This document shows positions 33,318 through 60,969 of a DNA stretch of 64,000 bases, in pieces. The notes beneath the pieces were generated by a model. It saw only the letters and a program-made list of their open reading frames with translations, made no database searches and had not been told where the DNA came from. Origin of the DNA: Candidatus Saccharimonadales bacterium (GTDB taxonomy: Bacteria > Patescibacteriota > Saccharimonadia > Saccharimonadales > SZUA-47); assembly GCA_041737385.1 (NCBI GenBank), contig JBGSRU010000002.1:269437-333436 (forward strand). Reading direction: 5' to 3'. The translations under genes were made by a program, and so were the position numbers. Positions within the stretch are counted from its first letter, which is position 1. Each line of letters begins with the position of its first letter.

Positions 33318-33392
33318 TGGCTGGGTCGGCAGGGATCGAACCTGCGAATGCCAGTACCAAAAACTGGTGCCTTACCACTTGGCGACGACCCA
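33318..33392 (-). tRNA. tRNA-Gln (anticodon UUG), CCA encoded
   Basis: The minus-strand sequence reads TGGGTCG-TC-GCC-AAGTGGTAA-GGC-A-CCAGT-TTTTGGT-ACTGG-CATTC-GCAGG-TTCGATC-CCTGC-CGACCCA-G-CCA. It folds as a 7-bp acceptor stem, a 5-bp anticodon stem with loop positions 34-36 = TTG, and a canonical T arm. Total length is 75 nt. Confidence 0.85.
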
Positions 33393-47922: not shown

Positions 47923-48861
47923 TCAACTAATCTGCTCGTTAAACTTATCCACCAATTCTGTTACGTGTGACCATTCCTTCATGAGATTCATGGTATCTAG
48001 TAAGATATATGCTTTTATCCTATCTTTAAGCAAGGGATGTTTGAACATTTCAGGGTAGTACTTTTCATACCAACTGCGGAGGTTTTTGTAGTCTTCAGGC
48101 ATAGCAAACTTTTCGTTTTCTTCAGTAGCGTACTTCTTTGGGTCGTCCATGAGCTTCGTTACTACAAATAGAGGATAGTCTACAGCACAGACATCAACAC
48201 TCTCTAGATCAATGAGAGCTTTAAGCTTAAAATTATCATCAACAATAATATTGTCGAAATGTACGTCCCAGAAAACAGGGCACATTTTATCCGTCTTGAG
48301 GGCGTCTAGATACTTACTAAACGTATTCTTTAGCGCAGAATCCTGAGCCTGAGCGATTATATTCTTATCAAGTAGTTCTCTGGCCATATCCTCAAGTCTT
48401 GTTTGCAGGTAAATGTGCCAGGGCTGGTCTTGCTCGCTAGGCAAAAACTCGACGCTAATCTTGTTAATTTTTCTTAAAATAGTTGATAGGTCTTTGACGA
48501 TGGCTTCTCTTTGAGCGTCGGTTGCAAGATGCCATACATGCCCTAAAACAGGGCCGTCTACGAACGCCATGAATATGTAATGTCTTCTATCGTCCGTCTC
48601 TCCTTCGGCAACAAAAGATGGTCTTGCAAAATCTATATCCGAGCTAAGTATCGCACGTTCAGTTTGGTACCGCTTATTACCATCTTCAGACTTATAGATT
48701 TTAAGTACCAGGTCATCATTAATTTTATAGACCTCGTTCATAAAGCCTATTGTTATTCGTGAATGAGTAAAATACTCTATGTCATTTAGTTCGCATAGTT
48801 GCTTGATCTGGTCTGTGCTGAACGTTGATTCTGGATTCATTACGCTAAATATCTTCCACAC
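47923..48861 (-). CDS. Aminoglycoside/macrolide phosphotransferase-like kinase (APH/ChoK fold)
   Basis: Catalytic-loop-like FWDVHFDNIIV (D-x4-N) followed by ALIDLES (the DFG equivalent), in a protein of about 300 aa. Confidence 0.65.
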   Translation of the reverse strand: MWKIFSVMNPESTFSTDQIKQLCELNDIEYFTHSRITIGFMNEVYKINDDLVLKIYKSEDGNKRYQTERAILSSDIDFARPSFVAEGETDDRRHYIFMAFVDGPVLGHVWHLATDAQREAIVKDLSTILRKINKISVEFLPSEQDQPWHIYLQTRLEDMARELLDKNIIAQAQDSALKNTFSKYLDALKTDKMCPVFWDVHFDNIIVDDNFKLKALIDLESVDVCAVDYPLFVVTKLMDDPKKYATEENEKFAMPEDYKNLRSWYEKYYPEMFKHPLLKDRIKAYILLDTMNLMKEWSHVTELVDKFNEQIS

Positions 48862-48905
48862 ATATGGTTAGCTTATTTATCTGGCCTTCAAGTTTTTCGA
48901 TTGTG

Positions 48906-49460
48906 CTATTCACTGATCAACTCCTTAATACGCTGTGTACCCTCGTTAATAGGCTGTGTCCCGTCAATAACCATATCTGCGTACTCTTTTGGCGCATCTC
49001 GAACTAAATATTTATCTTCATTTTCAAACCACTGATCCCACATAGCTACAATTTCTTCATCTGACTTGCCTTCATTTCCTTTATCCCTAGCAAGTCCGCG
49101 CTCCAGACAAATTTCTTTTGGCGTATCTACATACACCCCAAAGTCTATATACTCACGAAGCTCTTTGCGCAGTGCCGATACGCCCTCTAGAATCATGATC
49201 TCGGTAACTGGCTGATCAACAACAGGTTCTGGTTTGTGGTCTGCCCACCATTTTGACCTTGGATAACTTAATTTTGTTGCGCCTTGCCTGACCGGCTCAA
49301 GAACCCGTTCAATCACAAGTGGCCACCAATTGATAGGATTATAAAAGGACGCGAAATCATCAGTATGAATAATCTCTGCGCCCAGCTCTTTAGCTAATTC
49401 TTGGGCAAGAGTAGATTTACCAGATCCACCATGTCCGTCTATTGCTATGAACTTAGTCAT
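48906..49460 (-). CDS. P-loop nucleoside/nucleotide kinase-like protein
   Basis: IAIDGHGGSGKSTLAQELAKELG Walker A at the N-terminus, with the size and layout of uridine-kinase/NMP-kinase-like proteins. Confidence 0.6.
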   Translation of the reverse strand: MTKFIAIDGHGGSGKSTLAQELAKELGAEIIHTDDFASFYNPINWWPLVIERVLEPVRQGATKLSYPRSKWWADHKPEPVVDQPVTEIMILEGVSALRKELREYIDFGVYVDTPKEICLERGLARDKGNEGKSDEEIVAMWDQWFENEDKYLVRDAPKEYADMVIDGTQPINEGTQRIKELISE

Positions 49461-50046
49461 TCCTTAAATCATTCCAATTCGTTCTAGGCAATAATGCCTC
49501 TGATCCATTTCTACAAAGCACACATTCGTCAGGAGAATACTTACTGGTCTTCATGGATGCAGCCGATAGTATTCTACGGCGATTGAGCGTTTCTTGACCG
49601 GTCATATTTGCAAGACAGTATACGAGATCGACTACTTTGATGCCCTTTGACTCTAATTCCTGAATTGTAGCTAAGGCAGCACCTCCGCCGTACATATCAT
49701 CTGCGACCACAAGTGCCGTTGATCCATCAGGAATACTGAATGTTGTCACGTATTTTTCTGATGGCAGAGTGTACGCAAACTTAGCACCTAAGAGCTTCGC
49801 TGCTTCAAAAGCGATAGGAATGCTGTAGGGAGCATAGCCAACAATATAATCAATATTGTCTGAGAGTTCAGGCAATAAAGTTGATTTGATAATTTCAGAT
49901 ATAAGCTGCGGTTCTTGAGTTATCACATCCGAATTAAAGTATGCATCTACATACTTGCCAGACATGGATGTTTTGACGTGAGGACCAACTCCACCGTAGC
50001 ACCAAAACGCTCCTTTTTCTTCAAGAACTTTTTTCCAATTAGTCAT
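49453..50046 (-). CDS. Phosphoribosyltransferase (orotate-PRT-like)
   Basis: PRPP motif ALVVADDMYGGGAA and the upstream IVGYAPYSIPIA pattern. An 8-nt overlap couples it to the downstream kinase gene. Confidence 0.6.
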   Translation of the reverse strand: MTNWKKVLEEKGAFWCYGGVGPHVKTSMSGKYVDAYFNSDVITQEPQLISEIIKSTLLPELSDNIDYIVGYAPYSIPIAFEAAKLLGAKFAYTLPSEKYVTTFSIPDGSTALVVADDMYGGGAALATIQELESKGIKVVDLVYCLANMTGQETLNRRRILSAASMKTSKYSPDECVLCRNGSEALLPRTNWNDLRND

Positions 50047-50449: not shown

Positions 50450-50734
50450 ATGGATCCAACTCAAGTAATAAATCAGCGTGTTGAAGTGGCTGTCTTTTAC
50501 AGAAAAGATTGCGACATTAGTATGTTGGCGTACCCGGTTAAAATGAAATATAAAAACCAAGAAATACTTTTTACTCGTTTAGGTCTCAGGCACGAAACAG
50601 CTAAAGGCAAAAGAATGATTCACGTGTTTGATATGTCAGATGGTGTAAATGATTATAGATTAGAATTTGATGCACAAGGCTTAACCTGGACACTCGTTGC
50701 GATTATCCCGGGCGTCTATGAGGCAGGGAAATGA
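50450..50734 (+). CDS. 94-aa hypothetical protein translationally coupled to the Y-family polymerase
   Basis: Its stop overlaps the polymerase start (ATGA, 50731-50734). It shows no S24 peptidase (UmuD) or YolD motif. Confidence 0.5.
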   Translation: MDPTQVINQRVEVAVFYRKDCDISMLAYPVKMKYKNQEILFTRLGLRHETAKGKRMIHVFDMSDGVNDYRLEFDAQGLTWTLVAIIPGVYEAGK

Positions 50735-51987
50735 ACTACGATTTAAACCAAGACGAACCAAGAATAATGTGGGTAGATTTGAATAGTGCATTTGCAATGG
50801 CAGAACAGCAAGCCCATCCATCACTGCGCAACAAACCACTAGGCGTGACGAACAGACTGTCAAAAGAATGCTGCGTCATTGCAGCCTCATATGAAGCGAA
50901 GGCTCTTGGAATAAAGGTGGGGGTTAGACGCTCCGAAGCGAAAGCACTCTGTCCCGACTTCATCATGCTAGAGACTGATCCACCAAAATACCATCACGTA
51001 TACAAAAAACTAGCGGCAATAATGAAAAGTTACTGTCCAGATGTAAAGATGAAAAGTATAGATGAAGGAATTATGGACTTTAGAAAGATGGACAAAACTT
51101 ACACAACAGAGCGCCTGATTGCTATCGGCTACGAAATGAAAGAGCGCGTCAAAACTGAAATTGGAGACTATATAAAAATAAACGTAGGAATCGCGCCTAA
51201 TAGATTCTTGGCTAAAACAGCAGCCGGTTTGCACAAGCCGGACGGGCTTGACGTCATAGACCATAGGAACCTAATAAAAGTCTACAGGTCGTTAGAACTA
51301 CAAGATTTAAACGGCATAGCTGATGGCTATGGAAGCAGGTTAAGATCGTTTGGCATTGCAACACCAATGCATTTTCTTAATGCTCGTGAAGACCTACTCC
51401 GCAAACAAGTTTTCAAAAGTATAAACGGAATGCACTGGTATAAGAGACTTAGGGGCTATGAAGTGGACGACTACGAAACCAACATAAGCATGGTTGGCCG
51501 TCAGTGGGTAGTGAAGAGTCCAAGCAACAACGAAGACTACCTGCGTTCATGTCTGCATTTCCTAGCTGAAACAACTGGCATGAAACTACGTTACAGAAAT
51601 GTCGAAGCTAGAGGCGTTGCAGTCTGGCTGGCCTTCCAGTCTGGGGAAGTATTCTCAGACAAAAAAATGTACAAAACTGGAGTTTTTACTAACGAAGATA
51701 TTTGGCTTCGTGTATCGAAAATATTTAACAACCGCCCCAAGCATATGGTGGTCAGAACCATGGGGCTATATTTATATAAACTTGAACCGTCTAGTCGCAG
51801 TCAAATTGGCTTATTTCACAATACTGAAAAATCACAATACATTACCGAGGCAATGGATGAGATAAACGATTTCTATGGTTCATTCACCGTGTTTTCAGGC
51901 GACTCACTTGAAGGAACCAAGCACGTGAAACAGAAAATTCCATTCGGCGGTACAGAGTATTTCGATTTATTATTAAAGAGACAATAA
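50731..51987 (+). CDS. Y-family DNA polymerase (UmuC-like translesion polymerase)
   Basis: MWVDLNSAFAMAEQQ...LRNKPLGV resembles the UmuC N-terminus (D-x-N-x-F-Y-A-S-x-E). The catalytic SIDEG motif is retained, and little-finger-size C-terminal domains are present. Confidence 0.8.
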   Translation: MNYDLNQDEPRIMWVDLNSAFAMAEQQAHPSLRNKPLGVTNRLSKECCVIAASYEAKALGIKVGVRRSEAKALCPDFIMLETDPPKYHHVYKKLAAIMKSYCPDVKMKSIDEGIMDFRKMDKTYTTERLIAIGYEMKERVKTEIGDYIKINVGIAPNRFLAKTAAGLHKPDGLDVIDHRNLIKVYRSLELQDLNGIADGYGSRLRSFGIATPMHFLNAREDLLRKQVFKSINGMHWYKRLRGYEVDDYETNISMVGRQWVVKSPSNNEDYLRSCLHFLAETTGMKLRYRNVEARGVAVWLAFQSGEVFSDKKMYKTGVFTNEDIWLRVSKIFNNRPKHMVVRTMGLYLYKLEPSSRSQIGLFHNTEKSQYITEAMDEINDFYGSFTVFSGDSLEGTKHVKQKIPFGGTEYFDLLLKRQ

Positions 51988-52255: not shown

Positions 52256-52284
52256 AATACAAGCTTGAGAAGTATTGACAGATG

Positions 52285-52293
52285 TGATATAAT
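52285..52293 (+). promoter_or_regulatory. Extended -10 promoter (TGaTATAAT) for the leader transcript
   Basis: TGATATAAT at 52285-52293, with ATG 52301 lying 7 nt downstream. The nearby TTGACA (52275-52280) is only 7 nt away and so is not a functional -35. Confidence 0.5.
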
Positions 52294-52300
52294 ATATCTA

Positions 52301-52399
52301 ATGAATAAAATCAGTATTTCAGTTTCAACAGAACACCTTTTGCAGCAAGCTGCGGTATTTTTTGGTTTTATCTCTTTTATCCAGGCGGTAGCTCCTTAG
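52301..52399 (+). CDS. Candidate 32-aa Phe-rich leader peptide (MNKISISVSTEHLLQQAAVFFGFISFIQAVAP)
   Basis: Leaderless ATG. Four TTT Phe codons fall within seven codons (52358-52378), and the ORF end overlaps the antiterminator segment GGCGGTAGC (52384-52392). Confidence 0.45.
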   Translation: MNKISISVSTEHLLQQAAVFFGFISFIQAVAP

Positions 52400-52431
52400 A
52401 ACGTATTAAACGACCATAAATAATTACAAAA

Positions 52432-52457
52432 GCGACCGCCAGAAAGCGGTCGTTTTT
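52432..52457 (+). terminator. Leader terminator of the PheRS-like operon (attenuator)
   Basis: CGACCGC-cagaaa-GCGGTCG followed by TTTTT, 14 nt upstream of the GGAGA RBS of the 52485 ORF. Its 5' arm is complementary to 52384-52392. Confidence 0.6.
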
Positions 52458-52484
52458 AATTAAATATTAATTGGAGAAATTACT

Positions 52485-52676
52485 ATGAGTGAAATACAAA
52501 AATATATTGGAGAAGAGTTAGATAAACCAGAAACCCTAAGCAAACAGTTAGATAAACAAGATGATGGGCTTGAAGTTGAAGCCAGTGTAGCGCCTGTAAC
52601 CGAACTTGGAGCTGGTGAAATAATAGCCTTATCACTAGATGATATTGTTCCGCGTAGCTGGAAAAGCTGGGAATAG
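52485..52676 (+). CDS. 63-aa acidic protein, function unknown
   Basis: The GGAGA RBS lies 8 nt upstream, and the stop lies 2 nt before the next start. It is very acidic and has a C-terminal ALSLDDIVPRSWKSWE. Confidence 0.5.
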   Translation: MSEIQKYIGEELDKPETLSKQLDKQDDGLEVEASVAPVTELGAGEIIALSLDDIVPRSWKSWE

Positions 52677-52678
52677 TC

Positions 52679-53818
52679 ATGAAAATGAATATTAAGCCAC
52701 TAACAAAGGCTCAGGCAGATTACTACCTGAGCCTCCCAGATCTTACAAAAGAAGAGAGCAATCATGCGGTTGGCTTGCTGTACAGAAAAATCAAAAAGAA
52801 AATAGAATCAACACATCCAGATAGTGAAATTATGATCTATCGGGATAATCAGATCATTTCTATTGAAGATAACTATGAAAACTTGCTGATTCCAAAATAC
52901 AATATTAGTCGTTCATCTACCTACACACATTATGTAGATGGGGGTACGTTGCTACGAACTCACGCATCATCAGCAATACCTGGCGCTATGCGTGAGCTTG
53001 CAAAACGCAGCGACTGGAATGACGTCGTGATTCTCGTTCCAGGACTCGTATACAGGCGTGATGTGGCAGATAAGAAACATGTCGGACAGATTCACATGCT
53101 AGATGTTTGGCGTGTTGTAAGAACAGCCGGCAGGCCAGAAGTTACTCACGATACACTTCTAGGTGCAGTTAAAGATATAGCAGCAACAGCTGCACCTGGG
53201 TGGATGCTACGCATTGAGGATTCACCTCATCCATACACTGACGGCGGCATTGAGGTTAATGCCGTCAACAAAGATGATGGACGAGATATAGAAATACTAG
53301 AGTGTGGACTCATCAAAAAAGAAGTCTTAAAAATCAATGGCCTAGACCCACGGGTCTATTCAGGATGGGCGCTCGGTATGGGGCTCGACAGACTCGTTAT
53401 GACGCTGAAGGATTTACCAGATATACGTTATTTGCGTTCAGGTAACCCTAAAATAGCTAAACAAATGCTAAACCTTAATACGTATTTGGAAGTGTCTAGT
53501 CAGCCTGCAATACAGCGCGATATGTCCTATTCAGTACCTGAAAGTTACGTTGAAGAGGATATATCTCAAGACATAATGTCTGCAATGGGTGATGATATAG
53601 CAGCTCTTGAAGAAGTAGAGATATTAAACGAAACCAGCTACGAAGACTTGCCGGATACAGCACGTAAAAATCTTGGCATACAATCAGACCAAAAGAATGT
53701 GCTAGTTCGTGTGACGTTGAGGCATCTAGAAAAAACGCTAACTAGTAAAGAGGCCAACATAATCTATGACAATATCTACCCACAAATTAACTACGGGGCA
53801 GCGGGGTACGCATCATGA
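52679..53818 (+). CDS. Single-chain PheRS-like class II aminoacyl-tRNA synthetase homolog (alpha-type catalytic core plus a C-terminal FDX-ACB-like domain)
   Basis: LLRTHASSAIPG aligns with LLRTHTS. Motif 2 is GLVYRRDVADKKHVGQIHMLDV. Motif 3 is GWALGMGLDRLVMTLKDLPDIRYL. The C-terminal PAIQRDMSYSVP...VLVRVTLRHLEKTLTSKEANIIY resembles the ferredoxin-fold anticodon-binding domain. Confidence 0.7.
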   Translation: MKMNIKPLTKAQADYYLSLPDLTKEESNHAVGLLYRKIKKKIESTHPDSEIMIYRDNQIISIEDNYENLLIPKYNISRSSTYTHYVDGGTLLRTHASSAIPGAMRELAKRSDWNDVVILVPGLVYRRDVADKKHVGQIHMLDVWRVVRTAGRPEVTHDTLLGAVKDIAATAAPGWMLRIEDSPHPYTDGGIEVNAVNKDDGRDIEILECGLIKKEVLKINGLDPRVYSGWALGMGLDRLVMTLKDLPDIRYLRSGNPKIAKQMLNLNTYLEVSSQPAIQRDMSYSVPESYVEEDISQDIMSAMGDDIAALEEVEILNETSYEDLPDTARKNLGIQSDQKNVLVRVTLRHLEKTLTSKEANIIYDNIYPQINYGAAGYAS

Positions 53819-55470: not shown

Positions 55471-57699
55471 ATGAATTTAAGCGATAACGAAAAACGAGAT
55501 GTAATTAAATATCTAGAGGCTGGCAAGCCCCTGCCAGAGAAATATCGTTTTTTGTTATTTGATGACGCTCGCGAAGTTGAATTACTGTGGAATGGCAAGA
55601 CTAATGAAGTTACAAATACCGTCCTACCATTCCAAGTTATTGAACAGATTGATGAGCCACGGAGTGACGACAAAATTGGACTACAATCAACATTGTTTGA
55701 CGATAGCGGTAGACAGTTAACAGGTTGGACTAACAAGTTAATATGGGGCGATAACAAGCTAATTTTGTCATCCCTGAGTAATGGCCCATTTCGTAAAGAA
55801 ATTGAAGCTCAAGGCGGATTAAAGCTGATATATATTGACCCGCCTTTTGATGTTGGTGCAGATTTTTCAATGGATATATCAATTGGAGAAAGCCAAGACG
55901 AACAAAGTTTTACAAAGAAACCGTCCGTCATTGAAGAGATTGCATATCGTGACACTTGGGGTAAGGGTGCTGACAGCTTCATATCAATGGTGTATGAACG
56001 CCTAAAATTAATGCATGATTTACTGGCTGAAAACGGTAGTATATATGTTCATTGTGACTGGAGAGTAAATGGTTACATGCGTCTAGTGCTAGACGAAATC
56101 TTTGGTAAAGATAATTTTTTGAATGAGATTTTATGGAAAAGAAGAACAAACACAGTAAAAGCTATATCAAATAAATTTCAAATCAATACAGATACAATCT
56201 TCGTTTATACGAAGTCAAAGGGGAGCTATCAGTTTAATCTTCAGTATGGAGAGTATCCGAAAGAATATCTAGATAGGTTTAAGTACGAAGATGAAAAAGG
56301 TAAATTCAGGTGGCAAGTAATGGCTACATACTCAGAGGCAAGGCTAGCTTCTCTACAAAGAGAAGACAAAGTTAGATTTTCAAAGGGTGCAAAATATCCC
56401 GAGTTCAAGCAGTATGTATACGAATTAAAAGGTAAGCCCATAGAGAATGTTTGGGATGATTTAAACATGATAAATGCTATGGGAGATGAAAGACTCGGCT
56501 ATGCTACCCAGAAGCCTGAAGTGCTACTTGAAAGAATTATCAAGGCGTCGTCAAATGAGGGTGACTTAGTCGCTGACTTCTTCTGTGGTTCAGGAACAAC
56601 CATGGCTGTAGCTGAAAAATTAAATAGAAAATGGATAGGCTCGGACCTAGGCAAGTTTGGCGTCCATACTTCTCGGAAGCGAATGATTGATGTACAGCGT
56701 AAGTTAAAAAAAGACGGTGTTAACTTCAGAGCTTTTGAAATATTAAATGTCGGTAGATATGAACGAGATAGCTACTTAAATGTTAATGACGACTTGCGTG
56801 TCGAAGAAAAGGCCCAGCAAGCTATAAGAAAAGAAAAAGAGTTTGTTAAGCTAATTATTACAGCATACAAGGCAGAGCCTGTTGAGTCGTTTGTAAACAT
56901 TGTTGGGAAGAAAAGAGATAGGTTAGTAGCAGTTGGTCCAATTAGTACGCCTGTTTCGTCTAAGCAAGTGGACGATATAGTAGCTGAGTGTAAAGACAAA
57001 GGCATTACAAAGGTTGACATACTTGGGTTTGACTACGAAATGGGATTAGATTTTCATGCATACGCCAGTCAAGGCATAGATGTTGCATTTAGGATAATAC
57101 CAAGGGAAGTGTTTGATAAAAAAGCTGTGGAGCGAGGACATGTTAAGTTCTACGATGTTGCTTTTATTGAAGCTAAACCAACCGTTAAAGGTCCGATGAA
57201 TAAGAAAGAAGTATCAATAGAATTGACCGACTTCTCCGTTTTTTATAATCAAGATGACTCCGGCGAAGTTGCAGAGGCATTACGCCCCGGCGGAGAAAAG
57301 GTCATTGTAGAAAACGGCCAAGTAGTAAAAGTTTCAAAAGATAAAGAGAGCGATATTATCTCAAAAGAAGTACTAACCAAAAAATGGAGCGACTGGGTTG
57401 ACTATTGGGCTGTGGACTTTGACTTTTCAAGCCGAAAAGAAATGATTAGAGTACCAAAAACTCATGGAGATAATCTATTTGAAAAAGGTAAAGTTCAGGA
57501 ATTGCTTGAGTTTGAAGATGTGTGGACTGGAGACTACATATTTGATAACGAATGGCAGAGTTTTAGGACAAAAAAGAACAGAGAGCTTGAACTGACCTCA
57601 GCGGCAAAAGAAGTTGGGCGAGGCAAATATAAAGTAGCAATCAAAGTTGTAGACATATTTGGTAATGACACTACTCGGGTTATTGAGGTAGAGGTATAG
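55471..57699 (+). CDS. mod: Type III restriction-modification DNA methyltransferase (Mod, N6-adenine/N4-cytosine beta class)
   Basis: Motif IV LIYIDPPFD precedes motif I DFFCGSGTTMAVAEKLNRKWIGSDL. The N-terminal EKYRFLLF...LIWGDNKL region is typical of type III Mod proteins. It lies directly upstream of res. Confidence 0.85.
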   Translation: MNLSDNEKRDVIKYLEAGKPLPEKYRFLLFDDAREVELLWNGKTNEVTNTVLPFQVIEQIDEPRSDDKIGLQSTLFDDSGRQLTGWTNKLIWGDNKLILSSLSNGPFRKEIEAQGGLKLIYIDPPFDVGADFSMDISIGESQDEQSFTKKPSVIEEIAYRDTWGKGADSFISMVYERLKLMHDLLAENGSIYVHCDWRVNGYMRLVLDEIFGKDNFLNEILWKRRTNTVKAISNKFQINTDTIFVYTKSKGSYQFNLQYGEYPKEYLDRFKYEDEKGKFRWQVMATYSEARLASLQREDKVRFSKGAKYPEFKQYVYELKGKPIENVWDDLNMINAMGDERLGYATQKPEVLLERIIKASSNEGDLVADFFCGSGTTMAVAEKLNRKWIGSDLGKFGVHTSRKRMIDVQRKLKKDGVNFRAFEILNVGRYERDSYLNVNDDLRVEEKAQQAIRKEKEFVKLIITAYKAEPVESFVNIVGKKRDRLVAVGPISTPVSSKQVDDIVAECKDKGITKVDILGFDYEMGLDFHAYASQGIDVAFRIIPREVFDKKAVERGHVKFYDVAFIEAKPTVKGPMNKKEVSIELTDFSVFYNQDDSGEVAEALRPGGEKVIVENGQVVKVSKDKESDIISKEVLTKKWSDWVDYWAVDFDFSSRKEMIRVPKTHGDNLFEKGKVQELLEFEDVWTGDYIFDNEWQSFRTKKNRELELTSAAKEVGRGKYKVAIKVVDIFGNDTTRVIEVEV

Positions 57700-57700
57700 C

Positions 57701-60391
57701 ATGGCTCTACATAAAGACTTTCCAACAGACCCTTACGCTATATTAGACCCAAGTATTCGCTGGTTTCCCGCTGATGAAGATTTGAGGGACAAGGGGCACG
57801 AGAAGCTACTCCCACCACTTGTTGCTGACTTGCGAAAAAAAGTTAAGGAATGGCGACTGCTCAATTATGAGGGTGCAAGTGATACATCTATTGCACTGCT
57901 AAACTGGTGGTTCAAAGAAGACCATATTCAATACAATCAAGACGGCTCTTCGTACATTTTTAGATACTACTTTGCACAGCGTGAAGCACTTGAAACAGTT
58001 GTCTGGCTTTACGAAGTTGCTAAGGTAAAAGATAAGTACGACCTCATACGATACAACTCCACTGGTGTGCTAAGTGCAGGCATGTTTACAGAGGAATGGC
58101 TTCGGTTCGTAATCAAGATGGCTACTGGTGCTGGAAAGACAAAAGTCATGAGCCTTGTGCTCGCATGGGCTTACTTTCACAAAAAATATGAGGAAGACTC
58201 ACAACTGTCAAAGAACTTCCTCTTAATTGCCCCCAATGTGATTGTGTTTGAGCGTATAAAGAATGACTTTGAGGGATTGAAGATATTCCATGAAGACCCT
58301 GTACTTCCTGATAATGGCTATCGTGGTCAGAATTGGCAGGATGACTTCCAACTCACGCTTCACTTACAAGACAATCTACGGAACATTTCTGACACGGGCA
58401 ACATCTTCCTTACTAACATACATCGTGTGTTCGAGTCGGATGTTAAGAACGCCAGTGCTGATGACGAAGACTCATCGACCTATTTCTTAGGCGACAAGCC
58501 TGTGACTAAAACAAATGACTCAACAGTTGACCTAGGAATGATAGTTAGAGATATTGATGAGTTGATTGTTATCAATGATGAAGCTCATCATATATGGGAC
58601 GAAAAGTTAGCATGGGCAAAGTCAATTCAAGATATAGACAACCAGTTAAAGCAAAAGGGCTCAGGGTTATCACTACAGCTTGATGTTACGGCTACACCAA
58701 AGAAGCGAGACGGTTCAATCTTTGTACAGACAATTAGTGACTACCCTCTTGTCGAGGCAATACACCAACAGATTGTTAAAAACCCTGTTGTGCCTGACGC
58801 CGCAAGTCGGGGTAAGTTACATGAAAACCAAAGCTCACTGTTTAGTGAAAAATATAGAGACTTTATTAACCTTGGTATTGAAGAGTGGCGTAAAACCTAC
58901 GATGAATTGAAGCCTATGGGCAAGAAGTCAATCTTGTTCATAATGACAGATGACACTAAGAACTGTGATGAAGTAGCAGAATATATCAGAACTAGCTTTG
59001 CTGATTTGCGAGACGGCGTACTAACTATTCATACCAATAAGAGTGGCGATATCTCAGAAAGCGTTTCAGGAAAGAACAAAGACGAGCTAGATATACTCCG
59101 TAAGCAAGCTAACGAGATTGATAGTTGGGAAAGCCCATTCAAAGTAATCATTTCTGTAATGATGTTGAAAGAGGGTTGGGATGTTAAGAATGTAACTACT
59201 ATTGTTGGACTAAGGCCATATGCCGCTGACTCTAAAATCTTACCCGAACAAACACTTGGTCGTGGTTTGCGTAGAATGTTCTTTGGTCGAGATGATGTAA
59301 AAGAATATGTCAGCGTAGTTGGTACGCCAGCCTTTATGGAGTTCGTGGAGTCAATCAAGGGCGAGGGCGTTATCTTAGAAAAGAAAGCCATGGGCACAGG
59401 CTCTAAGCCAATAGCACCTATGGTTGTTGAGGTAGACAGCGAAAATCCACAAAAAGATATTGAAAAGCTAGATATTGAAATACCAATCATGACTCCAAGA
59501 ATACAGCGGGAGTACAAGAACCTTTCTGACTTAGATGTATCAAAGTTTGGTAACAAAAAAGTTTCAATAAAAACATTTACTGAGCAAGAAAAGCGAGAGA
59601 TTGTTTTCAAGGATGTTGTTGGCGAAAACGAACATCACACTACTGTACTTAGTGGCGAGATAAACCCTGACTACCAAAGCGTGATTGGCTTCTTCGCACA
59701 AGCGATTATGCGAGAGCTAAGACTGTTTGGTTGCTATGACATTTTGTTTGGCAAGGTCAGAGAATTCGTGCACCAGTATATGTTTGAGAACGAAGTTGAG
59801 CTGTCTGATTTGAACATGCTCAGAAACCTATCCGAAGTTGAGTATATTCATCTGATAAAAGACTCGTTCAAAAAAGCAATCAACGAACTAACGGTTCAAG
59901 ATAGTGGCGATACCGAGATAAAGAACTATATCAAGATAAGTGAGTCACGCCCATTCGTCGTGAATGACAAGGGTTTCGTTGTACCTAAAAAGTCAGTCTT
60001 CAATAAAATTGTCGGCGATAGCGATTTTGAGCTAGTGTTTGCTGGCTTTATAGAGGGATGTGAGGATGTTATTTCGTTTACCAAGAACTTCCAAAACAAA
60101 GAAGCTAGTGCCCTGCGAATTGAGTATAAAAACTCTGAGGGCTTCATAGCTAACTACTACCCTGACTTCTTTGTAAAAACTGATAGCAAAACGGTCTATA
60201 TAATTGAAACTAAGGGTCGTGAAGAAGAAGATGACAAGCTAAAATTTGAGCGTCTAAAAAAGTGGTGTGATGATGTTAATGACCGCCAAAGCAAAATGGC
60301 CTATAATGCTCTCTACATAAAACAAGAAGAATGGAATAGAGACAGACTAAAGAGCTTCGATGAGGTTGTCCGAGTATTTGGAGATAAGTAG
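57701..60391 (+). CDS. res: Type III restriction endonuclease Res subunit (SF2 helicase plus PD-(D/E)XK nuclease)
   Basis: Walker A MATGAGKT, DEAHH, MLKEGWDV and the C-terminal YYPDFFV...YIIETKG nuclease motif. It starts 1 nt after the mod stop. Confidence 0.85.
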   Translation: MALHKDFPTDPYAILDPSIRWFPADEDLRDKGHEKLLPPLVADLRKKVKEWRLLNYEGASDTSIALLNWWFKEDHIQYNQDGSSYIFRYYFAQREALETVVWLYEVAKVKDKYDLIRYNSTGVLSAGMFTEEWLRFVIKMATGAGKTKVMSLVLAWAYFHKKYEEDSQLSKNFLLIAPNVIVFERIKNDFEGLKIFHEDPVLPDNGYRGQNWQDDFQLTLHLQDNLRNISDTGNIFLTNIHRVFESDVKNASADDEDSSTYFLGDKPVTKTNDSTVDLGMIVRDIDELIVINDEAHHIWDEKLAWAKSIQDIDNQLKQKGSGLSLQLDVTATPKKRDGSIFVQTISDYPLVEAIHQQIVKNPVVPDAASRGKLHENQSSLFSEKYRDFINLGIEEWRKTYDELKPMGKKSILFIMTDDTKNCDEVAEYIRTSFADLRDGVLTIHTNKSGDISESVSGKNKDELDILRKQANEIDSWESPFKVIISVMMLKEGWDVKNVTTIVGLRPYAADSKILPEQTLGRGLRRMFFGRDDVKEYVSVVGTPAFMEFVESIKGEGVILEKKAMGTGSKPIAPMVVEVDSENPQKDIEKLDIEIPIMTPRIQREYKNLSDLDVSKFGNKKVSIKTFTEQEKREIVFKDVVGENEHHTTVLSGEINPDYQSVIGFFAQAIMRELRLFGCYDILFGKVREFVHQYMFENEVELSDLNMLRNLSEVEYIHLIKDSFKKAINELTVQDSGDTEIKNYIKISESRPFVVNDKGFVVPKKSVFNKIVGDSDFELVFAGFIEGCEDVISFTKNFQNKEASALRIEYKNSEGFIANYYPDFFVKTDSKTVYIIETKGREEEDDKLKFERLKKWCDDVNDRQSKMAYNALYIKQEEWNRDRLKSFDEVVRVFGDK

Positions 60392-60969
60392 TGGATGACC
60401 TAGAGTTGTCCGCTAATGTATTCCACGAACAAGCTGTACAGGCTTATGTGTCCTCTAGAATGTTGCTGGCTACTACCTCGTTATTCCCAGTAGGTTTGTA
60501 TAGCGCGCATCTAGCATGTGAATGTATGTTGAAATCATTAACTGCTCAGTCAGGCTCACATCCTGTGCAGAAGCACGATTTATTAATGCTGAACACTAAC
60601 TTGCAGATAGCAATAAATGACAATGATTTATTAGGACAAGAATATATACGAATACTTACTTGGCTCAATCCATATAGTGAGCTAGGTAGGTATGGTGCTT
60701 TAGCAAGGCCACAAAATGATCCCGATAGAGTTATATCAGGACCAGTACAAGTAAGAGGTGCTGTATCATCACAACCGTCGGGTGATATGAAAGATATAGA
60801 TTTTGTTTTCACTCTGTTAAGAAGTATATCAACGGTTGAAAATGATATAATAAGTAAAATTGTTGCTGGCAAAACAGTCAGAGGCTGGAACTCATCTGTT
60901 TCCATCGAGGAAGTAGTGCTGGCGCATAACAAATATACTAATCTTCTCAATAAATCAACAGGGATCTAA
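60391..60969 (+). CDS. HEPN-domain-like protein coupled to res
   Basis: The GTG start overlaps the res TAG by 1 nt. The pattern AHLACECMLKSL...VQKHDLLML...YSELGRYG fits the HEPN helix arrangement (A.E..LK.L...H.L..L......RY). Confidence 0.5.
   Translation: MDDLELSANVFHEQAVQAYVSSRMLLATTSLFPVGLYSAHLACECMLKSLTAQSGSHPVQKHDLLMLNTNLQIAINDNDLLGQEYIRILTWLNPYSELGRYGALARPQNDPDRVISGPVQVRGAVSSQPSGDMKDIDFVFTLLRSISTVENDIISKIVAGKTVRGWNSSVSIEEVVLAHNKYTNLLNKSTGI

Follow-up and report, generated by a model that had tools for sequence, protein, structure and literature searches.

The question raised by this locus is what a bacterium would do with a protein that is built as a single chain, like the mitochondrial phenylalanyl-tRNA synthetase (PheRS), and that carries an altered amino-acid pocket. 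The DNA analysed here, referred to as the window, is a stretch of 64,000 nucleotides from a Candidatus Saccharimonadales bacterium (assembly GCA_041737385.1, contig JBGSRU010000002.1, positions 269,437 to 333,436 of the forward strand). An earlier note on this DNA had left three options for the protein, namely a drug-insensitive second PheRS, the organism's only PheRS, or an enzyme activating a different substrate. Our analysis identified it as a member of a family named SrmL and, judging from sequence comparison, SrmL is probably an accessory, active ligase resembling aminoacyl-tRNA synthetases (aaRS), with a specificity other than for phenylalanine. The gene and its two domains are located as follows:

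52679..53818, + strand: SrmL coding sequence, 379 amino acids, ATG start (open reading frame (ORF), NF051887 match of 389.3 bits, more than 1,100 close homologs)
52781..53464, + strand: class II PheS-type catalytic core, residues 35-262 (PF01409, conservation table, FARS2 alignment)
53495..53788, + strand: FDX-ACB-type C-terminal domain, residues 273-370 (PF03147, fold match, residue mapping)

Pfam analysis placed tRNA-synt_2d (PF01409) on residues 35-262 with an E-value of 1.3e-28 and FDX-ACB (PF03147) on residues 273-370 with 33.4 bits, barely over the gathering score of 31.1, and revealed no match to PF02912, the N-terminal tRNA-binding arm. An AlphaFold2 model based on an alignment of 106 sequences was confident throughout, with a mean predicted local distance difference test (pLDDT) score of 93.8 and a predicted template modelling (pTM) score of 0.89. 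When this model was used in a fold search, the top whole-chain match among solved structures was human mitochondrial PheRS (FARS2, 3cmq; TM 0.75/0.70, 387 columns, 22% identity, E 1.4e-28), and bacterial PheRS alpha-subunits matched over the core only. As the C-terminal domain of the model matches the fold of the FARS2 anticodon-binding domain, the structure backs the weak sequence call for this domain and confirms the single-chain FARS2-like architecture. The proposal that a PheS core is joined to an FDX-ACB-type domain in one bacterial chain was thus upheld by Pfam, AlphaFold2 and the fold search alike. The chain was predicted in a 'closed' arrangement, as in apo FARS2, and a C-terminal domain of 105-130 amino acids is present in all SrmL representatives. 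On the strength of the predicted structure, the window protein is a stand-alone, single-chain class IIc aaRS paralogue with the overall fold of mitochondrial PheRS.

An NCBIfam scan assigned the protein to NF051887, the 'PheS-related mystery ligase SrmL' equivalog, with 389.3 bits versus a cutoff of 300, and the match extends from end to end (residues 20-371 on model positions 2-347 of 349). We read the name SrmL as an apparent acronym for 'pheS-related mystery ligase'. None of the PheRS models was passed, the scores being 131.7 bits versus a cutoff of 258 for the mitochondrial model pheS_mito (TIGR00469), 88.1 versus 237 for bacterial pheS (TIGR00468) and 60 versus 350 for the archaeal-type model. 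The models for PylRS and SepRS (TIGR02367 and TIGR00470) gave no match to the window protein at E ≤1e-2 (0.01) in the same scan; a few distant SrmL-like representatives showed weak matches to PylS_Cterm and sepS. All 51 diverse single-chain relatives tested matched NF051887, and since the highest-scoring of them reached 508 bits, the centre of gravity of this model lies outside the Saccharibacteria. RefSeq and UniRef already use the name SrmL in Anaeromyxobacter, Pseudomonas, Arthrobacter and Saccharospirillum. Because the curated equivalog cutoff is passed, the protein described by the earlier note belongs to an already named family, and its novelty as a kind did not hold: the window gene belongs, over its full length, to an orphan family that was already catalogued. 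As to whether close homologs had already been described as well-characterised enzymes, they proved to be catalogued and named but not characterised. Homologs of the window protein are labelled 'hypothetical' by NCBI and 'PheRS alpha chain' by JGI; in our opinion, the window gene should not carry a PheRS annotation.

Homologs of the window protein number more than 1,100. The best 120 are 60-85% identical to it and 372-380 amino acids long, and the named ones among these 120 all come from metagenome-assembled genomes of Candidatus Saccharibacteria or Saccharimonadales. Among 1.8 billion cluster representatives, 96 were recovered at E ≤1e-30, many of them full-length and with 26-57% identity, and a search seeded with an Anaeromyxobacter-type SrmL yielded more than 6,100 matches at E ≤1e-20. 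A profile search with the family alignment returned the Saccharibacterial members again and nothing further. The named members comprise Anaeromyxobacter dehalogenans, A. oryzae and A. oryzisoli, Pseudomonas gregormendelii and other Pseudomonas, Arthrobacter, Pseudarthrobacter and Saccharospirillum mangrovi. SrmL is a very large family of thousands of sequences with a patchy distribution over at least four phyla. Full-length homologs with 40% identity were also found on two plasmids and in one phage record. On plasmid pGnB68 of Glutamicibacter nicotianae (NZ_CP142605.1 49734-50852, our locus L094) the SrmL gene adjoins a Cmx/CmrA chloramphenicol-efflux gene, with a umuD and Y-family polymerase pair 5 kb away, and on a plasmid of Azotobacter chroococcum (NZ_CP066311.1 46090-47202, L095) it lies amid insertion sequence elements and a VapBC pair. 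The third copy is carried by an 'uncultured phage' record of 634,780 bp (LR745206.1 613830-614906). A further locus, L007 (protein P0134), has a phage-like look with dense, small unknown ORFs. In a neighbour-joining tree of the catalytic core, a crude tree with one bacterial outgroup and no support values, the Saccharibacterial proteins formed one clade inside SrmL, and single-chain proteins with a canonical pocket, described below, fell outside.

The amino-acid pocket was compared over 179 Saccharibacterial, 117 Anaeromyxobacter-type and 52 diverse sequences. The alignment register was checked in 350 sequences by means of T251 and A294 of E. coli PheS, which are specificity residues (PMC3275996) and correspond to T187 and A231 of SrmL. 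In the HMMER alignment with FARS2, P-A-D-H-P-S-R of the mitochondrial enzyme lies over P-K-Y-N-I-S-R of the window protein, Y-R-R-D...H-Y-P-I-F-H-Q-L-E over Y-R-R-D...H-V-G-Q-I-H-M-L-D, F-P-F-T-H-P-S over H-P-Y-T-D-G-G, and G-W-A-F-G-L-G-L-E-R over G-W-A-L-G-M-G-L-D-R. Hence, the window protein has N75-I-S-R78 in place of HPAR/HPSR, with the histidine of HPxR gone, I138-H-M140-L-D142 in place of F-H-Q-x-E, and G229-W-A-L232-G in place of GFAFG/GWAFG. The altered pocket with NISR, IHMLD and GWALG was therefore upheld by the FARS2 and the 350-sequence alignments, and the register of the latter is anchored on the two E. coli residues. Three more changes had escaped the earlier note, from FPFT to H184-P-Y186-T187, from LGCG to L-E208-C-G, and from Leu to W144.

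These changes differ in their reach. H184, Y186, W144 and E208 occur in 296 of 296 sequences of the two large clades, the canonical residues being F, F, L and G, and residue 232 is L or M in SrmL instead of the canonical F. Met140 is a state specific to Saccharibacteria (96% there), the other SrmL clades having Gln, and residue 142 is Glu in 83% and Asp in 13% of Saccharibacterial sequences, so that Asp142 of the window protein represents a minority state. As far as the alignments tell, the exchanges of Gln for Met and Glu for Asp are lineage-level details and not features of the family. The SrmL signature, H184-P-Y186-T187, H139-x-x-(D/E)142-x-W144, L-E208-C-G and Q-K-N340, is present in 100% of the 179 and 117 sequences and complete in the window protein. 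The residues of the adenylation site have been retained: R126, R127, H134, E205, G210 and R238 are 100% conserved in the 296 sequences and G235-L-D-R238 is invariant in SrmL (Arg126 corresponding to R195 of motif 2 in E. coli, His134 to H202, Glu205 to E268, and Arg238 to R301 of motif 3), and the adenylation residues predominate among the 52 diverse representatives as well. As these residues are invariant, SrmL is very probably a catalytically active enzyme. In Thermus PheRS, the FPF pair (ttPhe258 and ttPhe260), which SrmL has lost, recognises the phenyl ring through an edge-to-face aromatic network (PMC3275996).

The face that would read the anticodon has been rewritten too. Human mitochondrial PheRS reads G34 of tRNA-Phe by Asp364, Phe366, Ser375 and Arg414; Phe366 stacks on the G34 base and is equivalent to Tyr-beta-731 of Thermus, and the D364G variant showed no detectable activity (PMC7540514). 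The FARS2 residue numbers of that study coincide with the PDB chain index of our HMMER alignment. In SrmL, the position of Asp364 is occupied by Ser or Asn317, Gly being also met and Asp found in ≤2% of the two large clades, that of Phe366 by Thr319 (90-94%) and that of Ser375 by Asn340 (100%); the window protein has N317, T319 and N340, and the equivalent of Arg414 is not alignable. By this mapping, three of the four G34-reading residues (Asp364, Phe366 and Ser375) are replaced family-wide. The C-terminal domain is strongly conserved, including an RD-x-S motif, and contains a conserved SrmL-specific insertion, L-P-x-x-A-x-x-R-L-G, between the G34-reading strands. A pocket and an anticodon face that were both rewritten and then frozen bear the mark of a changed function, not of decay or mere drug resistance.

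Besides SrmL, there are single-chain proteins with a canonical pocket. Six single-chain representatives (P0218, P0220, P0232, P0247, P0255 and P0257) have the canonical H, F-H-Q, F-P-(F/Y) and W-A-F, and one of them, P0232, passes the mitochondrial PheRS model. In these six, Asp364 is kept in three, with Ser or Thr in the rest, and all six have an aromatic residue at the stacking position and Ser at that of Ser375. P0218 (398 amino acids, L096 10001-11197) possesses a fully canonical pocket with HPSR, FHQIDG, FPFTDPS and GWAFG and is encoded on a clearly bacterial contig. Mitochondrial PheRS has been called the only monomeric enzyme built on the class II catalytic module (PMC3275996); contrary to this, the bacterial contig of P0218 indicates that single-chain PheS-type enzymes are not confined to organelles, and points to the existence of monomeric PheRS-like enzymes in bacteria other than SrmL. 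SrmL and the canonical-pocket single-chain proteins may together represent the bacterial stock behind the monomeric architecture of mitochondrial PheRS. With SrmL, this architecture is widespread in bacteria, with both specificity surfaces rewritten.

Upstream of the gene, the window contains the following elements:

52265..52293, + strand: promoter-like TTGAGA-17-TATAAT with TG extension, 11/12 matches (a consensus match only)
52368..52465, + strand: conserved 5' leader element (model hit), found only upstream of SrmL in this sub-lineage
52433..52457, + strand: invariant GC-rich hairpin followed by a T-run, resembling an intrinsic terminator, at the 3' end of the leader
52485..52676, + strand: ORF of 63 amino acids between leader and SrmL, ending 2 nt before the SrmL ATG

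The covariance model R1, built from the five distinct copies, finds the leader solely upstream of SrmL, in nine loci that contain five distinct sequences. Nucleotide identity of the leader is 77-84% in loci whose SrmL proteins are 60-74% identical. No other + strand copy was found with R1 in the 64-kb window, and an opposite-strand match over the same hairpin was weak (22 bits, E 0.14). Among the Rfam covariance models, none matched the leader at its gathering score. A T-box or other known leader was rejected, as Phe_leader (20.8 versus 55) and Trp_leader (20 versus 41) stayed below threshold with the terminator hairpin alone aligned. The number of promoter-like sites in the region was not above shuffle expectation. 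The conserved blocks of the leader, TTTATyCAGGCGG..CTCC..ACGTATTAAACGACC..TAAATAAGTAC, look single-stranded, the hairpin stem is identical in five of the five distinct leaders, and the hairpin is followed by GGAG and then ATG. From its sequence, GGCGGT (~52385-52390) could pair with the 5' arm of the terminator as an antiterminator, and the arrangement suggests an attenuator or a riboswitch-like switch. A mimic of the tRNA-Phe anticodon was also considered and discarded, as the GAA triplet in the terminator loop of the window is not conserved in the other four leaders. The leader alignment showed that the ATG of the 63-amino-acid ORF corresponds to the SrmL start in two relatives. No tblastn match to this ORF was found in 87 loci, and none in Pfam, NCBIfam or PADLOC; as it is not conserved anywhere, a role as peptide substrate or partner was ruled out, and it is probably a lineage-specific insertion or an upstream ORF.

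For the gene neighbourhood, 95 SrmL loci (948 kb) were assembled from genome, metagenome, plasmid and exact-sequence look-ups. The genes on either side of SrmL are usually unrelated and often lie on the other strand, and only minorities of loci share neighbours. A group II pyridoxal phosphate-dependent decarboxylase (PF00282, 6e-66) is encoded close to SrmL in about four lineages. The order APH-type kinase, decarboxylase, SrmL, all on one strand, is found in L077 (2612-9113) and L084 (596-8130), with a Gfo/Idh/MocA oxidoreductase and a class IV aminotransferase close by, and in L080 (539-6878) a class I/II aminotransferase, the decarboxylase and a kinase are clustered with SrmL. The SrmL proteins of these three loci are ~43-46% identical to the window protein and are encoded on other contigs resembling those of the Candidate Phyla Radiation (CPR); among all neighbourhoods, these clusters hint most clearly at a pathway for small molecules or amino acids. 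In the Anaeromyxobacter clade, and only there, SrmL belongs to a block of alanine racemase, class IV aminotransferase, MarR, SrmL and an amidase-signature (GatA-like) enzyme (L088 5772-12720 of A. dehalogenans, CP000251.1, and L090 6245-12710), which may link it to D-amino-acid or amide metabolism, and in Saccharospirillum a polar-amino-acid ABC transporter is located downstream. Such recurrent minority neighbours are perhaps leads to an unusual or D-amino acid, not rules. Elongation factor P (EF-P), which is nearby in two of the 95 loci, RecA and the Y-family polymerase were dismissed as partners, being anecdotal neighbours.

Around SrmL, the window itself carries the following genes:

33318-33392, − strand: tRNA-Gln(UUG), the sole RNA gene detected in the window, 19 kb from SrmL
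47923-50046, − strand: operon-like trio of an APH-family kinase (312 amino acids), a uridine-kinase/PRK-like P-loop kinase (184 amino acids) and a phosphoribosyltransferase-like protein (197 amino acids)
50450-51987, + strand: Y-family (DinB/UmuC-like) DNA polymerase, preceded by an overlapping ORF of 94 amino acids
53864-54883, + strand: truncated DUF711/UPF0210-type protein of 339 amino acids (profile positions 97-406 of 413), 45 nt 3' of SrmL
55471-60969, + strand: type III restriction-modification pair (Mod, 742 amino acids, PADLOC MTase_III 3.7e-111; Res, 896 amino acids), followed by a HEPN-domain protein

The restriction-modification pair and the HEPN protein downstream place SrmL beside a defence or variable island. 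This pair was the sole PADLOC match beside SrmL, and the defence-system models gave no match for SrmL, DUF711, the 63- and 94-amino-acid ORFs or the Y-family polymerase. DUF711 was rejected as a conserved partner, its adjacency being limited to 3-4 close relatives (L008, L050, L051). The trio at 47923-50046 looks like nucleoside salvage or modification; its phosphoribosyltransferase-like member scored under the Pfam cutoff. The 94-amino-acid family recurs 4-5 ORFs from SrmL in L011 (~3.7 kb), L012, L014 and L071, there without the polymerase. In a number of loci (L002, L004, L010, L015/L016, L022, L028, L049, L068 and L078), genes for ordinary tRNAs (Leu, Pro, Gln, Trp, Val or Phe) lie within ~450 nt, mostly within 300 nt, of SrmL, in L010 and L068 with a tRNA of the Gln type immediately 5' of the SrmL leader. 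Roughly estimated, such adjacency exceeds chance for a 1-Mb genome. As the identity of these tRNAs varies, they are not cognate to SrmL, and they may mark island or integration sites.

How, then, are the options for SrmL to be weighed? That SrmL is the sole PheRS, having taken the place of PheST as a reduced monomer in a CPR bacterium with a small genome, would agree with the reduced genomes of Saccharibacteria and with a 64-kb window lacking pheS and pheT; the window, however, amounts to ~12% of a 531-kb contig. The gene table of Southlakia epibionticum, a cultivated member of the Saccharibacteria, lists a canonical PheT (SEML1_0562, 853 amino acids) and PheS (SEML1_0572), both essential by transposon sequencing, with PheS as the sole PF01409 protein and no SrmL (PMC10633639). 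From this gene set it follows that ordinary PheST is the housekeeping enzyme of the phylum and that SrmL is dispensable for a Saccharibacterium. The free-living hosts of SrmL among Pseudomonadota, Actinomycetota and Myxococcota are known to encode PheST, so that there, as on plasmids, SrmL would be an extra gene. With orthologs in Pseudomonas, Arthrobacter and Anaeromyxobacter, on plasmids and in a phage record, and with the pocket and the G34 triad both remodelled, SrmL is very likely not the ordinary phenylalanine-charging enzyme of the cell, and the idea of the organism's only PheRS has become very unlikely, a replacement of PheST by SrmL being close to negligible in our estimate. A second PheRS, insensitive to inhibitors or analogues, which would charge tRNA-Phe with Phe under particular conditions for resistance or as a back-up, accords with the FARS2-like fold, with horizontal mobility and plasmid carriage beside Cmx/CmrA on pGnB68, with the tolerance of eukaryotic cytosolic PheRS for Asn and Tyr at two Phe positions, and with the leader, many aaRS genes being leader-regulated. 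It is at odds with Ser, Asn or Gly at the Asp364 position and Thr in place of the stacking aromatic residue, with several pocket changes including Glu for the Gly of the LGCG strand, and with the failure of both curated PheRS models by wide margins; furthermore, the P0218-type proteins with their canonical pocket are better candidates for this role. Since the readers of G34 in tRNA-Phe are replaced throughout the family, the drug-insensitive second PheRS of the earlier note is weakened, and we regard it as improbable. Still less credit can be given to an aaRS-like protein that has lost catalysis and serves in regulation or RNA binding, as do HisZ or the catalytic-like module of PheT: the want of a partner gene would suit it, but the arginines of motifs 2 and 3 and the ATP-site residues are invariant across clades sharing ~37% identity, and the pocket residues are invariant too, as in a working active site.

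Among the three options, an enzyme for a different substrate fits best, and neither the sole nor the second PheRS was supported. The accessory ligase of non-Phe specificity that we favour would work alongside normal PheS/PheT, not in their place, and would adenylate with ATP an amino-acid-like carboxylate other than plain L-phenylalanine, whose side chain, to judge from the new His184, Tyr186, Glu208 and Trp144, may be more polar or charged. The remodelled C-terminal domain would hold the acceptor to which the activated group is transferred; an RNA or a tRNA recognised by means other than G34 is the simplest candidate, and in the Saccharibacterial sub-lineage expression would be gated by the 5' leader ending in the terminator hairpin. 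In a more specific version, which seems possible but doubtful, SrmL would represent an additional aaRS-type specificity, that is, a monomeric class IIc enzyme that charges a tRNA, itself read by the rebuilt FDX-ACB domain, with an amino acid other than Phe, possibly a D-amino acid or a non-proteinogenic one, for non-ribosomal use or conditional recoding. Ligation of the activated substrate to a protein or small molecule instead of a tRNA, with the FDX-ACB-like domain repurposed, is rather unlikely but has precedents of its kind in EpmA/PoxA acting on EF-P, in amino-acid:carrier-protein ligases and in AsnA. The loss of the G34 readers together with the gain of a conserved C-terminal insertion, the lack of a dedicated tRNA nearby and the sporadic metabolism clusters (L077, L084, L080, the Anaeromyxobacter block and the Saccharospirillum ABC transporter) speak for such an acceptor. 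To our knowledge, however, anticodon binding is the sole role of the FDX-ACB fold in the PheRS enzyme family, and the domain is strongly conserved in SrmL down to RD-x-S; moreover, the metabolic associations concern ~5 lineages of the 95 loci and differ from each other, and EF-P is nearby in two loci only.

Several observations weigh against an accessory ligase of non-Phe specificity. The comparison of the pocket is alignment-based. In human cytosolic PheRS, Asn and Tyr occupy the positions of ttPhe258 and ttPhe260, and the enzyme is still Phe-selective via a shifted aromatic triad (PMC3275996), so that HPY alone excludes no aromatic substrate and not even Phe. A tblastn search with E. coli PheS and PheT on the window and the 95 loci returned SrmL only, with neither pheS nor pheT in the window or ~950 kb of flanking DNA. 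Clustering of 932 neighbouring ORFs from 87 loci gave no family in more than nine loci, hence no conserved partner gene, and no dedicated or pylT-like tRNA was found near SrmL in the window or the loci. The leader fold has no support from covariation, as its stem is invariant, and a full-text search within the searchable literature found no paper on the family. Should the substrate and acceptor be identified, they would define a new aaRS-type activity or a tRNA-dependent or -independent modification pathway, or alternatively provide a scaffold for genetic-code engineering.

Compared with known systems, the window protein has the same length, two-domain layout and invariant residues as the RefSeq-named members of NF051887. 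The Saccharibacterial clade scores lower in this model than the Anaeromyxobacter type (389 versus up to 508 bits) and differs from it by Met for Gln140, mostly Glu for Asp142, Trp for Leu230 and N-I-S-R for G-A-A-R; a conserved 5' leader of its own is a feature of the Saccharibacterial sub-lineage within SrmL. PylRS and SepRS are the class IIc precedent for a PheS-like core that evolved to charge a non-canonical amino acid, and these non-Phe members of the subclass became scaffolds for genetic-code engineering; the window protein differs from them in matching neither model and in having no pylT-like or dedicated tRNA gene nearby. With bacterial PheS it shares a homologous core (27-31% identity to E. 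coli PheS), in which the pocket aromatics are replaced, and its C-terminal domain is homologous to the B8 domain of PheT, but unlike PheS/PheT it lacks the N-terminal coiled-coil arm and the B3/B4 editing domain, and its chain includes no beta subunit. Its best whole-chain structural counterpart is FARS2 (TIGR00469; 3cmq, 3tup), which is likewise a single chain with class II motifs and a DIR-x-(L/F) linker. From FARS2 to the window protein, HPSR, FHQLE, FPFT, GWAFG and LGCG of the pocket become NISR, IHMLD, HPYT, GWALG and LECG, and the G34 readers Asp364, Phe366 and Ser375 become Asn317, Thr319 and Asn340. SrmL has in addition a C-terminal insertion, and it is bacterial, mobile and probably accessory, whereas FARS2 is organellar and essential.

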